64,000 bases of DNA from an uncultured Solirubrobacteraceae bacterium (GCA_964588985.1 CAZPQW010000001.1:32001-96000); one strand, 5' to 3'; shown: positions 43,515 to 47,898, counted from the stretch's first letter. Notes: generated by a model from the letters alone, not told the origin. Translations and numbers: made by a program.

Positions 43515-43578
43515 TCTCGGTTTGCAACGCGTCCCGAACTCCCCGTTTTTCGCTGGTAGGAGGTTGTTGTTCGAACTT
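43515..43578. repeat. att-like repeat R1 (type B left arm)
   Basis: 30 bp identical to 45768-45797, then GTTTTTCGCTGGTAGGAGGTTGTTGTTCGAACT. Confidence 0.9.
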
Positions 43579-43657
43579 GCTGGGTCTTCGCCGCATCGGC
43601 GGGGCCGCGTCTGGTGGCGGGCGTGACCGGGCATCCAAGGAGCCAGCGCGGGTTGAC

Positions 43658-44416
43658 TCAGGCGGCGTGAGGACGAGCTTCCGTGGTGCGCTTATCGATT
43701 CCGTCAAGGAGCGCACTGGTGGCCTCGACCGATCGCGCCAGTCGCGGTAGCTGAGGGGCAGAAATGATCGTTGCGCGGAGGTCCGCTGCCAGCGTCTTGT
43801 AGCCGAGGTCTTCGAGCTGGGCTGGAAGCTCGGGTCTTGAGAGCGGGAAGCTGTGGTCCGCCAAGAGGCGCCATCGCGCGGTGAGGGTGAGCGCTGTCCT
43901 TACCTGCTCAACCGCGGCTTCGTGATCGCCGCTTGCCACCATCGCGCGAGCGATGCTGAGAGACTTCTGCGCTTGCTGGTGCTTGCGAAGCGGATCTGGC
44001 CACAGCTCCTGTTCTGCGATGAGGCTTTTGCTCTCTTGAACGATGCCCGTGTCGAATACCACGCGGCCGAAGCGCAGGGACCAGTGGGTGAAATCATCTC
44101 CATCTAGTAGTCGGGCACGTAGCCGCGCAGGCGAGACGACGTGGACATCAATCTCGTCAGGTAGACAATCGAGCGCGATGGGCGTGCCGATCAGGTGATA
44201 GTCGAGGTCGCTGACCGGCGTGCGGGCTCCGCGCGCCGTCGATCCGGTAAGGAGCAGGGCGTGCGCCCCCCCTTCGCGAGCACGCGACTCGACCATATCG
44301 TGAGCCACGCGTAGCTTCGCCGGCAGCAGTTCTTGGATGCGGTCGGCCTCATTGCTGAGCCGCATCCTCCAGAGGATTTCGTCGAGCGCGCGCTGTCTTT
44401 CGAGCTCGCTACTCAC
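43658..44416 (-). CDS. Minimal nucleotidyltransferase with C-terminal helical (HEPN-like) domain
   Basis: LLLTGSTARG...SDLD MNT motif. Confidence 0.8.
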   Translation of the reverse strand: MSSELERQRALDEILWRMRLSNEADRIQELLPAKLRVAHDMVESRAREGGAHALLLTGSTARGARTPVSDLDYHLIGTPIALDCLPDEIDVHVVSPARLRARLLDGDDFTHWSLRFGRVVFDTGIVQESKSLIAEQELWPDPLRKHQQAQKSLSIARAMVASGDHEAAVEQVRTALTLTARWRLLADHSFPLSRPELPAQLEDLGYKTLAADLRATIISAPQLPRLARSVEATSALLDGIDKRTTEARPHAA

Positions 44417-44786
44417 GATGAGCCTCGGCTAGATCGACTGCCGACTCGACTTCCGAAGCCAGGTCCTCGAGTGACTGCTCCCCGAAATCCGGGTCCTCTC
44501 CGTCATATACGGCCTCCTTGCGAGCCACGTTGAGCGTACGCAAGGCTGGTGCGAAGTTCGTCGTGATGGCGCCCTGGGCGTAAAGCTGTTCGGCGGCCTC
44601 AGCCTTCCGCCAGTGATTGGGCTCGATCGAAACGCCATGCTGTTCGGCGAGTGCGGCGATCGCTGCCTCGAGCGAGACAAAGAGCCAGGTGACGGCGTCT
44701 GTGTAGTCCTGAGACGCTACGGCCGGCAAGGCGCGGTCTAGGTGCTCCCGAGCGAGCTGTTGCTTGGTCTTTGGCGACACGATCAC
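44409..44786 (-). CDS. HEPN domain protein
   Basis: AVTWLFVSLEAAI...NH...LNVARKEAVY; overlaps the MNT gene. Confidence 0.75.
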   Translation of the reverse strand: MIVSPKTKQQLAREHLDRALPAVASQDYTDAVTWLFVSLEAAIAALAEQHGVSIEPNHWRKAEAAEQLYAQGAITTNFAPALRTLNVARKEAVYDGEDPDFGEQSLEDLASEVESAVDLAEAHRE

Positions 44787-44851
44787 ATGCTACGCCCCAA
44801 GGTTGATGGGGTCGTCGATCCAACGTCATCTGGCCTCTATGCATTGGGGTC

Positions 44852-44940
44852 AAATCGCTCCTCGTGAAGCCTCCGGATCAGAGGCCACGGAGATTTCGAG
44901 AGTCTTCCCGCCATCCCCGTGTTTGTTTGAAGTTCGAACT
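44852..44940. repeat. att-like repeat R2 (type A left arm; symmetric attP-like site)
   Basis: Matches R4/R5 with 7 substitutions over the first 63 bp; TCGA motifs at 44896 and 44934 are symmetric about the CCCC tract at 44915-44918. Confidence 0.9.
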
Positions 44941-44961
44941 GCGTGAAGCCAAGCGTTCGAG

Positions 44962-45414
44962 TCAGCCGGGGACGTCTACGGCGATGTTAGTGCGGCGAGT
45001 CAGGCCGACAAGCAGGTTGATGTCGTCTGGATCGCCGGTGACGATGGTCACCGCGCAGATCCGGCTGCGTTCCTCGGCCATCGCCACGACCTGTGCATCG
45101 GTCGGCGAAATGTCGTGGCGCGAGAGCGAAAGTGCCTCAGTCCGCAGTACGCCCGCGCGGGTAGCGGCCTCGACGGTCAGTGGCGCGTAGATGTCGTCCT
45201 CTGCGCCGATGGCCTTGATCAGGCGATCGACGAGTGCATCGGAGCGTCGTTGGCCGGATCGCACCTCGGTAAGCACGGGGATCGGGATCAGGAGCGCTCC
45301 ATCGATGCGCAGTTTGAGCACTTCGATATACGCAACGAGCAGGTCCCGGTTCGCGGCCAGCGCGCTGACGCCGCCACTGTCGAGCAGGAAGTCGCGGCGA
45401 GGCCGGTTGATCAC
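44962..45414 (-). CDS. PIN-domain (VapC-like) toxin
   Basis: FLLDSG, VLTEV, TDAQVV, VTGDPDDI acidic residues. Confidence 0.85.
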   Translation of the reverse strand: MINRPRRDFLLDSGGVSALAANRDLLVAYIEVLKLRIDGALLIPIPVLTEVRSGQRRSDALVDRLIKAIGAEDDIYAPLTVEAATRAGVLRTEALSLSRHDISPTDAQVVAMAEERSRICAVTIVTGDPDDINLLVGLTRRTNIAVDVPG

Positions 45415-45659
45415 TCAGGCCAAGTGTCCGCGCGGCGCTGGAGCTCGGGCAGGTGCTTCGAGCCGTCGGCCCCCTCGGCGACGAGTTCGTCGCGCAACTG
45501 CTGGAGGCGAGCACGCTGGGCGTCACGGAGCTTCGGATCGTCCGCAGGCTGCGGCCCGACGTGCATTGCGATGGCGGCCTCCATTGCATTCATTGTATCC
45601 AGAGTCTCGGCAGTCGGATCGGCGTTCTTGACTGACGCACAAGGCTGGCAGGCGGTCAC
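45411..45659 (-). CDS. Putative antitoxin partner of the PIN toxin
   Basis: Small ORF overlapping the PIN start by 4 nt; RLQQLRDELVAE...TWPE; start uncertain. Confidence 0.55.
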   Translation of the reverse strand: MTACQPCASVKNADPTAETLDTMNAMEAAIAMHVGPQPADDPKLRDAQRARLQQLRDELVAEGADGSKHLPELQRRADTWPE

Positions 45660-45767
45660 GGAGCAGTGAGTTGGAGGTCTGCTTGACGGATCGCGGCGAC
45701 CGCTTGACGTCGCGCCGCCCGCCCGGCGGGCTTCATCAACTCCTCAAGTAGCCGATCCAGGGCGGCC

Positions 45768-46404: not shown

Positions 46405-46546
46405 CCGCCCGCCGCAGCGGGTCCCTGAGCGTCATTAGAGGACTCATGGCTGCCGTTAGGTCGATGGGCGGGGAACCATTCGCGGTGGGGCATCCTGCGG
46501 AGTTGACCATTAGGGCGCTGAACGGCTATCGGCGGAGTTCCTAGGA

Positions 46547-46753
46547 CTAAAGTCCCAGTTCGGGAGTTTTTTTTGAGATGGCGACTGTGCTACAGACGAG
46601 CAGTGCCGCAATGACCACTACGAGCCCGTGGAGAGACTGATGAGCAAGACAGTCGACAGCGACGAGTGGGACGATCACGACCAGCCGGAGCGCGACATAC
46701 GCAAGGATCGCGTCGAGTGCTGCCTCACCTCTCTTCTCAAGCCATCGTCGCAT
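46547..46753 (-). CDS. Small membrane protein
   Basis: Two hydrophobic segments in 68 aa. Confidence 0.4.
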   Translation of the reverse strand: MRRWLEKRGEAALDAILAYVALRLVVIVPLVAVDCLAHQSLHGLVVVIAALLVCSTVAISKKTPELGL

Positions 46754-46836
46754 GTGTTGATTGTCGTATGGCCCTAGGACGGAACCGGGTCTCGGCAAGC
46801 AGGTCGAGAGCGAACAGCCTCGGCTAGCAGGAGTCA

Positions 46837-46937
46837 AAATCGCTCCTCATGTAGTCGTCGAATCAGGGGCCACGGAGATTTCGAGAGTCTTCCCGCCATC
46901 CCCCGTTTTTAGCTGGTGCGAGGTCGTCGTTCGAACT
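46837..46937. repeat. att-like repeat R4 (type A left arm, R1/R3-type right arm)
   Basis: 46837-46906 identical to 47829-47898, followed by TTTTAGCTGGTGCGAGGTCGTCGTTCGAACT. Confidence 0.92.
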
Positions 46938-46991
46938 CGCTCATTTTGCTAGTGCTCGAGCTGGCGAACAGCCCGACGATGGGGCGTGGTC

Positions 46992-47438
46992 CTACGCTGG
47001 CTGGTCCTGATCGGGCTCAAGTTGGTCAGGATTTGGCGGCGGGCCTGCGGTCTCTATCTCGGCTTCGGTCCACGCTCTGAGTTGTTCAACCAAGGCGAGT
47101 GCCGCAGATCGGTCCAGGGCTGGCGGTTCCTCGCCCTCGTAGCGGAACTCGACTGCCCAAGGCGACAGCACGTCGGCCTCGGAAAGCTCGTCCGGTGCCT
47201 CAATGTCGTTTTCCTCGACCAGGCCGATGAGGTAGCTCAGCGCGTGGCTCTTCACGAACGTCACCCCGCGAGCGGCCAGTACGGCCTTGATCAGCTTCTC
47301 GGCGGCCTGCTGTGCGTGAAAGCCGATGATCGCGTCGGCCACGTCGGTGTCCGGGCAGACCTTCTGCACGAGCGTCTCGTCATCGACGGCCCTGGCGAGC
47401 AGCACCCGCGCCAGGTCAAGCCGGTCATGCGGCGGCAT
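46992..47438 (-). CDS. HEPN domain protein
   Basis: IGFHAQQAAEKLIKAVL, KSHAL, AVEFRY. Confidence 0.9.
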   Translation of the reverse strand: MPPHDRLDLARVLLARAVDDETLVQKVCPDTDVADAIIGFHAQQAAEKLIKAVLAARGVTFVKSHALSYLIGLVEENDIEAPDELSEADVLSPWAVEFRYEGEEPPALDRSAALALVEQLRAWTEAEIETAGPPPNPDQLEPDQDQPA

Positions 47439-47745
47439 GGAGCACTCGACCTTCGGTCAACGCGGCGTGGACCATCGTTCCCTTCACGGCCCCCCAGTCC
47501 TCCGCGTAGCGCTCGCTGACGACGACTACATCGAACGGCCTTCCGAGCGGGCGAAGCGCGCGACCGAGACGCACCATCTCGGCATGGCGGTCGCGAGGGT
47601 CGCGCTCTACGACCAGGAAATCGAAATCGCTGTCCGGGCCGGCGTCACCGCGCGCCTGCGAGCCAAACAACACGATCTTGACCGGATCGTCAGCGATAGC
47701 CGCAAGCGTCTGCCCTGCAGCCTCGATGATCTCCTGGGCAACCAT
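47425..47745 (-). CDS. Minimal nucleotidyltransferase (MNT) antitoxin
   Basis: IVLFGSQARGDAGPDSDFDFLV. Confidence 0.92.
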   Translation of the reverse strand: MVAQEIIEAAGQTLAAIADDPVKIVLFGSQARGDAGPDSDFDFLVVERDPRDRHAEMVRLGRALRPLGRPFDVVVVSERYAEDWGAVKGTMVHAALTEGRVLHAAA

Positions 47746-47828
47746 GGCGACACCGTAGCGAAGCCCGCGGATCAGGGCACAGAACGGTAGTCGTCCAGTT
47801 GCGGCAGACGATCTTTGGCGCCCGCCCC

Positions 47829-47898
47829 AAATCGCTCCTCATGTAGTCGTCGAATCAGGGGCCACGGAGATTTCGAGAGTCTTCCCGCCATCCCCCGT
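47829..47898. repeat. att-like repeat R5 (type A left arm; probable terminal attR)
   Basis: 70 bp identical to R4; sequence right of the C-tract lacks the GTTCGAAC arm. Confidence 0.92.

Follow-up and report, generated by a model that had tools for sequence, protein, structure and literature searches.

Tandem putative toxin-antitoxin cassettes behind a tRNA-Ser gene of a Solirubrobacteraceae bacterium, probably stacked by a large serine recombinase

Integrons, clusters of attC sites lacking integron integrases (CALINs) and pdif modules hold short, promoter-poor cassettes, often of the toxin-antitoxin (TA) type, that are bounded by sites and served by an enzyme in trans; the exchange involves either folded single-stranded attC sites and IntI or dif-like sites and XerCD, all of them tyrosine recombinases. 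In the cis-mobilizable elements (CIMEs) and the accretion-mobilisation known from ICESt1/ICESt3, att-flanked, recombinase-less elements build up in tandem and site-specifically, and are mobilised by the enzymes of a neighbour. Large serine recombinases (LSRs), namely CcrAB and CcrC, make the SCCmec, pseudo-SCC and composite islands at rlmH, where cassettes are stacked at the 3' end of one gene and some, without a recombinase, are bounded by att repeats. Here we describe an array that lies in a 64,000-nt window of the genome of an uncultured Solirubrobacteraceae bacterium (GCA_964588985.1, CAZPQW010000001.1:32001-96000; positions refer to this window unless a contig or locus is named). In this array, five related repeats (R1-R5, 43434-47898) downstream of a tRNA-Ser(GCT) gene separate four units of about 1 kb, each with a two-gene cargo predicted to be of the TA type. 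It differs from the SCCmec islands, which have a protein-coding target, cassettes of tens of kb, two recombinases that often act jointly, and internal ccr genes that do not cross att, and from the CIMEs, which depend on a tyrosine integrase and are decayed integrative and conjugative elements rather than two-gene cassettes of about 1 kb. From the integron-type arrays it is set apart by the absence of an attC-like fold and by arms that apparently derive from an LSR gene.

The closest described case appears to be the ssrA islands of Dehalococcoides, with the SCCmec composites also a close analogue. According to passages of their description (PMC3146451), these islands stand in tandem behind the tmRNA gene and are bounded by repeats of the 3' end of that gene, and the gene of DsiB, a serine recombinase of the CcrB family, lies at attL on the reverse strand; 15 islands without an integration module were proposed to be cis-mobilizable. 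Tandem islands behind a tRNA-like or tRNA gene, 3'-end repeats, a reverse-strand serine recombinase and integrase-less members are thus common to both cases. In Dehalococcoides, however, the same passages give a single target, ssrA, islands of several kb with rdhA and a repeat of 20 bp, whereas the present system uses four tRNA-Ser isoacceptors, has units of about 1 kb with predicted TA pairs and has arms that seem to be the recombinase's own last codons; those passages hold no statement that the recombinase gene spans attP. In view of these islands, an earlier note on the window, made from the sequence alone, went too far in knowing of no described system with such an architecture. Tycheposons also stack at tRNA genes; in the part of the preprint considered (bioRxiv 10.1101/2020.12.28.424599), 910 of 937 use tyrosine recombinases and the remaining 27 are LSR-bearing. 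Within the part of the literature covered, we found neither TA cassette arrays of about 1 kb assembled at tRNA-Ser by an LSR nor an LSR open reading frame (ORF) spanning attP described.

It is likely that the stretch from the tRNA-Ser(GCT) gene to position 47898 represents a tandem stack of integrative elements built by a Solirubrobacterales LSR at the 3' end of the tRNA. A repeat search of the window revealed three repeat families, an A-type left arm, a B-type left arm and a right arm. The A-type left arm comprises 70 nt (44852-44921, 46837-46906 and 47829-47898), and the copies of R4 and R5 are 100% identical, with that of R2 86% identical to both. The B-type left arm comprises 111 nt (43434-43544 and 45687-45797; 75% identity), and the right arm 41 nt (43541-43581 in R1, 45796-45836 in R3 and 46901-46941 in R4; 85%). 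Between left and right arm lies the core, a run of C followed by G/T, with the core G at 43545, 44919, 45800, 46905 and 47897. The right arm of about 40 nt terminates in GTTCGAAC at R1, R3 and R4, R2 has a shortened variant with GTTCGAAC at 44927-44940, and at R5, which has no right arm, A arm and core are followed by the chromosomal flank. On the plus strand, R1 (43434..43581) is accordingly made up of a B-type left arm (43434-43545), the core CCCCG/T and a cassette-type right arm (43546-43581); R2 (44852..44940) of an A-type left arm, core and short right-arm variant; R3 (45687..45836) of a B-type left arm, a six-C core and a cassette-type right arm; R4 (46837..46941) of an A-type left arm, a five-C core and a cassette-type right arm; and R5 (47829..47898), a terminal attR-like site, of an A-type left arm and core.

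When a sequence-only covariance model was built from the sites, the five array copies scored E 2.4e-27 to 1e-14. Repeat search, alignments and covariance model together confirm that the five related repeats are real and not due to chance. The arms follow the order B,A,B,A,A, and R4 joins an A arm to a right arm of the R1/R3 type in two alignments, just as the earlier note had described; its start of R1 at 43515 has to be moved to near 43434. Its four units of about 1.37, 0.88, 1.11 and 0.99 kb agree with core-to-core spacings of 1374, 881, 1105 and 992 bp, and the absence of a recombinase from the units also holds, as 43434-47898 contains no recombinase gene.

The repeats could be something other than recombination sites, namely dispersed elements of the repetitive extragenic palindrome or miniature inverted-repeat transposable element type, promoters or antitoxin leaders of TA operons, or an assembly artefact. 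In their favour, every repeat is followed by a gene pair on the minus strand, and the B arm could be taken for a small helical peptide. Nevertheless, we regard this group of explanations as highly improbable. In the whole assembly, which was also searched with blastn, the site model has only seven matches, five of them in the array and all in arrays or at tRNA-Ser. Therefore, the repeats do not form a dispersed family. We had also considered the repeats as promoter and leader of a small minus-strand ribbon-helix-helix antitoxin; this was ruled out by the origin of the arm peptides, which match LSR tails (see below).

The two matches outside the array have surroundings of their own. The sixth joins a tRNA-Ser(GGA) 3' end to a right arm (C1:294309-294397), and the region C1:294274-294810, which is outside the window, holds this tRNA gene, the cassette-type right arm and a single gene of 135 aa, the product of which has a glycine-rich, hydrophobic N-terminus; a distal left arm was not detected in that region. 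The seventh, on contig C24 (11700-12900; L001:3700-4900), is an isolated site with an altered A arm, core and cassette-type right arm beside an rve-type insertion sequence. It is followed by a YefM/ParE-like pair, a C-terminal PIN remnant and a further A arm represented by its first 20 nt; contig C24 has no tRNA-Ser.

Regarding a possible artefact, the runs containing the window are rhizosphere metagenomes. Logan contigs exist for all 24 listed runs, five of which may represent the source sample, and those of four runs were used to check the assembly. These contigs break inside the A arms, where they share only 24-61 nt, as an artefact might lead one to expect. Yet they cover the array and run through R1 and R3, the pieces of the A arms are found at 2-3 times the depth, in keeping with three copies, and comparable arrays were assembled in dozens of other genomes. 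For how the units are ordered across the three A arms, we rely on the original assembly. No joints were seen in the Logan contigs of the four runs, which is neutral on excision, as rare excision products would not show up in contigs. In run X7, contigs are missing over ~44910-45715 (cassette 2) and none joins across the gap, from which nothing was concluded; one X7 contig, whose match is confined to 45764-45830 and whose flanks differ, probably represents a B-type junction of another organism.

Evidence for our reading comes, first, from the left arms. Close to the core, both left-arm types are diverged versions of the T-arm and acceptor 3' strand of tRNA-Ser. Translated from the minus strand, the A-type arm reads as the peptide MAGRLSKSPWPLIRRLHEERF(G), to which a C-type peptide found in relatives (..SNPD..W.RI.ELH..RFG) is related, and the B-type arm as GSSGR.AN...L..L.EL.EP.G..ARR.A..IR. 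R2 and R4 differ by six codons in the tail frame, and all six differences are synonymous. To place these peptides we made use of P0001, an intact LSR of a relative, which found 148 homologues in a collection of 5.8 billion proteins, and grouped 121 proteins by C-terminus, namely P0001 and the 120 of these homologues that were listed. The majority, 70 of 121, run into tRNA antisense (..QMAERAGFEPAMEF.., ..MAGATGLEPATSAV..). Eight LSRs, full-length or partial, continue in frame into an A/C-type tail, and two bear a B-type tail (P0090, found by regular expression, and P0051, by eye). For P0036 (586 aa), which has an A/C-type tail and ends ..QMAGMAGKFSKSPWPLIRRLHDERFG, tblastn placed the tail on each of the window's three A arms (E 7e-9 to 2.4e-8; 7e-9 for R5). 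P0051, with its B-type tail, resembles the LSR remnant of the window in the pre-core sequence, and in a related array (L015) an LSR remnant runs on in frame into the A arm. Judging from these matches, the left arms of the array are C-terminal tail codons of LSRs of this clade and not small genes. Since the native tails are in frame in full-length LSRs, the LSR gene of this clade spans its own attP. The relic tail codons of R1 occupy 43418-43543 on the minus strand, within the B-type left arm.

An attP within a coding sequence, where integration alters the protein, is known from the integration-dependent immunity of mycobacteriophages, in which attP lies in the repressor gene and the repressor loses a degradation tag. 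SSV-type integrases, too, have attP within the recombinase gene (stated in the part of PMC7253208 considered). In SSV, however, a tyrosine recombinase is split in two, whereas here an LSR would swap only its last 22-45 residues. An SSV-like split integrase was thus rejected as a model: attP inside the ORF fits, but the enzyme is a serine recombinase and only the tail is exchanged.

At the proximal end of the stack, the tRNA-Ser(GCT) gene (38027..38118, plus strand; ARAGORN) would provide with its 3' end the left half of the chromosomal attB. Next to it, an LSR 3' remnant (38039..38524, minus strand) reads toward and into the tRNA. It corresponds to about residues 414-570 of full-length homologues, with 76.5% identity to residues 414-570 of P0051 (38524-38039; tblastn, E 1e-68) and 51.6% to P0001, and has no catalytic, recombinase and zinc-ribbon parts. 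Homologous intact LSRs comprise 595-650 aa with the domains Resolvase (PF00239), Recombinase (PF07508) and Zn_ribbon_recom (PF13408). In relatives they are found at the 3' ends of tRNA-Ser(GGA or GCT) or tRNA-Asp, placed and oriented as the remnant in the window, and their open frames extend into the tRNA. A cognate three-domain LSR is thus linked to the site in relatives, and the window keeps its 3' remnant only. As a side observation, tRNA-Ser(TGA) and tRNA-Ser(GCT) stand back to back at 37866-38118, 68 bp apart; this pairing recurs in L027, L032 and L035, and L027 shows that arrays can grow from both genes.

A profile of the A/C tail is present in 62 of 101 genomes of the same Solirubrobacterales genus and, at E <= 1e-4, in one of 118 other genomes of the order. 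None of the 101 genus genomes yielded a credible long open frame with a native tail in this profile search; a frame of 449 aa in G092 was discarded as Arg/Ala-rich and spurious. In another genus of the order, a tail-profile match (G202:C54:11570-11662) lies inside a 511-aa open frame, which may be an LSR with a native tail.

Because tyrosine integrases typically integrate at the 3' end of a tRNA and form a tRNA-like repeat, we have also weighed whether the repeats are sites of a tyrosine recombinase, either integron-like attC or the att sites of a classical tRNA-targeting integrase. A 2015 survey with Islander, in the part considered, supports such a view with the statement that serine recombinases were not known to target tRNA genes (PMC4383910). 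Contrary to this statement, an LSR clade that targets tRNA genes can be documented here: a tRNA on the opposite strand stands at the LSR 3' end in 30 of 49 Solirubrobacterales loci (L063-L111; Ser 8, Leu 11, Pro 4, Asp 3, Lys 3, Phe 1), and several of the 18 LSR loci in which no tRNA was called still end in residues that resemble tRNA antisense. Furthermore, the arms stem from the coding end of an LSR gene. R2, R3 and R4 as single strands fold no better than shuffles (both strands, z -0.54 to +0.56; one R2 strand -1.85), and an attC-like hairpin is absent from these three sites. No IntI-type gene (PF00589) was matched in or beside 38-48 kb, the nearest one in the window being at 4998-5501. In three relatives (G030, G025, G072), neither a Resolvase nor a Phage_integrase (PF00589) gene occurs within about 10 kb of the arrays. 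In G062, a tyrosine recombinase gene is located about 1 kb 5' of tRNA-Ser(TGA), which is the wrong side. We therefore rate a tyrosine recombinase as extremely improbable.

Reading the array as an LSR-built stack, we propose the following scheme. The LSR gene would lie at the tRNA-proximal end of the element, read toward the tRNA and cross attP. The last dozen or so LSR codons before the crossover would constitute the P' arm, and the 22-45 codons after it the P arm. Integration would fuse the LSR gene to the tRNA, and the tail would be replaced by residues of the tRNA antisense strand, with the native tail codons staying at the far end of the element as its P arm. Stacked elements would be arranged as tRNA / P' ... 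P / P' ... P / ... P / chromosome, and therefore R1-R4 would be attP-like junctions and R5 the final attR. The first unit (38119-43545) would be a decayed LSR element, and the next four, of about 0.9-1.4 kb, would keep only the arms and a two-gene TA module. These units 1-4 are flanked by the att sites R1-R5 and contain no recombinase ORF, a feature of non-autonomous integrative elements; such mini-cassettes would be mobile only with an LSR supplied in trans.

The geometry of the half-sites is compatible with this scheme on the left side. The distance from the start of TTCGA, the T-loop motif, to the core G is 19 nt in all six real tRNA-Ser ends, compared to 24 nt in 30 of 39 pseudo-sites. Among the remaining pseudo-sites, five read 23, 25, 25, 26 and 28 nt, tracking the length of the C-tract, one (L001) has TTCGA at 31 nt within an arm that is disrupted, and the motif is missing from two. 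In the part considered of Rutherford et al. (PMC3783163), the motif bound by the LSR zinc-ribbon domain is 5 bp nearer to the centre in attB than in attP. Assuming that TTCGA is this motif, the left halves would match the 5-bp rule. TTCGA-like motifs flank the core on both sides, at -24 and at +30 in the cassettes or about +20 in LSR elements (the end of TTCGAA being at +30 in cassette-type right arms versus ~+20 in the arms of LSR-bearing elements). Therefore, the dyad is unequal, and symmetry gives different centres for the cassette-type and LSR-type right arms. The identity common to all site types stops at CCG, usually followed by T, and we infer that the crossover dinucleotide lies in or next to CCG/T. 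C-tracts in the window span 43541-43545, 45794-45799 and 46901-46905; owing to their variable length, the right arm and the tail codons are shifted in reading frame (out of frame in R3 and R4). In the frame of the tail, the cassette right arm translates to VRTTTSY.RKTG, by eye similar to the last dozen LSR codons (FRG.GSY.E.M). Two further arm classes were noticed in relatives. A third, element-proximal class with a hairpin-like inverted repeat, TTCTTGGCT..AGCCAAGAA, occurs at the 3' flanks of tRNA-Ser in L004, L009, L027, L029 and L003, where it adjoins HEPN/MNT and PIN cassettes, and a fourth, CCAGTTTGA..GATCGAAA, in L018 and L020.

Further evidence comes from the distribution of arrays in relatives. 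Sites are present in 34 of 61 genomes of the same genus (the genome tallies include G065). In the loci of relatives, the site model also matches real tRNA-Ser 3' ends directly followed by a right arm. A tRNA-Ser gene (GCT, GGA, CGA or TGA) is found upstream of the sites in 15 of 20 loci; of the other five, two continue such loci and three have the tRNA just outside (L047, L036/L060, L039). All four isoacceptors are thus represented among the tRNA-Ser genes that have sites behind them. The intervals between sites, 34 in number and one of them including a tRNA, range from 614 to 3226 bp, the median being about 1.1 kb. In Pfam, 108 crudely called ORFs taken from 39 intervals of relatives most often matched PIN (5), PhdYefM (3) and PemK (2), next to single matches to MazE, HEPN, NTP_transf_2, RES with Xre_MbcA, ParE and CcdB, and a few non-TA matches (such as guanylate cyclase, hydrolase and ABC transporter); the recognisable cargo thus appears to belong mostly to TA families.

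The same cargo recurs at other tRNA-Ser genes and in other orders. Unit 3 is 86% identical to L017 8944-9562, the homology starting inside the 3' end of tRNA-Ser(CGA). The unit 2 cassette adjoins tRNA-Ser GGA (L033) and TGA (L029), the cargo of unit 4 adjoins tRNA-Ser TGA (L027), GCT (L021) and CGA (L031), and the cassette order differs in G031 and G018. At tRNA-Ser(CGA) of G072 (L017:9616-10644), a DUF497/BrnT-like cassette carries an extra gene of 343 aa before the A arm, with an N-terminal region that by eye looks TIR-like. Taken together, the sequences show what the arms are, that they are placed at tRNA-Ser, and that the same cargo has been used again at other genes for this tRNA. The proposal of the earlier note that an LSR stacked non-autonomous cassettes at tRNA-Ser finds support in left arms that match LSR tails, in arrays behind tRNA-Ser and in intact LSRs at these genes in relatives; attP-like internal junctions and an attR at R5 fit it as well. 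Mobilisation of the mini-cassettes themselves, now or in the past, and the LSR that acts on them are what we infer from this pattern.

Several points weigh against an LSR-built stack. Canonical LSRs recombine only attP with attB, or attL with attR in the presence of a directionality factor. Such rules do not explain how an element enters an occupied site, nor how an internal cassette between two attP-like junctions leaves it. The 96%-complete assembly contains no intact cognate LSR, tblastn with three LSRs matching the remnant alone, and its one gene with a Resolvase domain (on C17) is not at a tRNA. The cassette right arm is unlike the P' arm of LSR-bearing elements in the position of its motif, and by eye none of the 121 sorted LSRs ends in cassette-right-arm codons. 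The core C-tract varies from 3 to 8 C among the sites, which is odd for a spacing-sensitive site. Finally, unit 4 has an A arm in the window and a B arm in L027; because the same cargo is found with different arms across genomes, arms and cargo would also have to reassort by another route.

Some of these observations speak for the main rival, according to which the units arose by decay only: they would be stumps of formerly complete LSR elements that had each integrated independently and were then reduced to arms and an addictive TA module, and the mini-cassettes never moved. The same cargo with different arms in different genomes and the lack of an intact LSR in this genome agree with it, as do LSR remnants inside arrays (38039-38524 in the window; L015). 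However, a distinct cassette-type right arm is common to small units that differ widely in cargo across genomes, unit 3 is found again at a different tRNA-Ser isoacceptor, where the homology starts from the core, and interval sizes cluster near 1 kb. Moreover, the 100% identity of the R4 and R5 arms, compared to 86% for R2, suggests a recent exchange. Decay alone thus keeps some weight, although we consider it improbable as the sole process.

Logically, the array starts at the tRNA (38118) with the decayed LSR element, unit 0 (38119..43545), which we take to be one element of 5.4 kb. It comprises the LSR remnant, cargo genes and, at its far end, the B-type arm of R1. By Pfam, the cargo includes a methyltransferase-like gene of 734 aa (39050-41254), in which the sole domain is a C-terminal RMKL-like methyltransferase (E 1.7e-10), a GDSL hydrolase (42026-42706) and a HARE-HTH-like gene of 74 aa (43133-43357); ORFs of 222 aa (41289-41957) and 131 aa (42841-43236) have no family match.

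For the four following units the earlier note had postulated one TA pair each. This is solid for cassette 4 (46942..47828, minus strand), which by its domain matches encodes a HEPN toxin (46992-47438; E 2.2e-14) and an MNT nucleotidyltransferase antitoxin (47425-47745; NTP_transf_2 6.3e-11, with MntA at 3.5e-9, below cut-off). For units 1-3 the TA assignment rests on sub-threshold Pfam matches and Atlas look-alikes, and these are best viewed as candidate pairs. Cassette 1 (43582..44851, minus strand) holds a HEPN-like gene of 125 aa (44409-44786), assigned to HEPN by Atlas with very high confidence, and a gene of 252 aa (43658-44416) that is weakly nucleotidyltransferase-like (weak matches to DUF294 and HalB nucleotidyltransferase). 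Cassette 2 (44941..45686, minus strand) holds a PIN-like gene of 150 aa (44962-45414; E 0.0019, under the Pfam cut-off) and an upstream gene of 82 aa (45411-45659). At 45656-45659 the stop of the relic B-type tail of R3 overlaps the GTG start of this upstream gene (GTGA), which could be chance or co-option of the relic frame. Cassette 3 (45837..46836, plus strand) holds a DUF497/BrnT-like gene of 99 aa (45875-46174), for which the BrnT_toxin match in Pfam is weak (E 0.018) and which Atlas groups with DUF497/BrnT clusters with comparably high confidence, and a gene of 77 aa (46171-46404), followed by about 420 bp of extra DNA (46413-46836).

A bolder view goes beyond stacking. It assumes an integron-like capture by serine recombination, in which TA and defence cassettes of about 1 kb are shuffled in trans and any of the four tRNA-Ser genes can be used for docking, together with a tail swap by which the LSR senses its own state. 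Cassettes would carry only about 40 bp plus 70-110 bp of the recombinase's own gene ends. Because the LSR ORF spans attP, integration would swap the conserved tail (..W..I..LH..RFG or ..L..L.EL.EP.G..ARR.A..IR) for tRNA-antisense residues, and this swap would switch the activity or directionality of the LSR between the free and the integrated form. We put this forward tentatively, as a possibility that is rather doubtful in its full extent.

An LSR that spans attP and changes its own C-terminus may be a candidate for a built-in control of directionality. Such an LSR would also be of interest for genome engineering with serine integrases, and so would natural sites that function at several tRNA isoacceptors. 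If our reading is true, cassette arrays can also arise through serine recombination and not only as integrons (IntI/attC) and pdif modules (XerCD), and this would explain the pile-up of TA genes behind tRNA-Ser in a widespread group of soil Actinomycetota.

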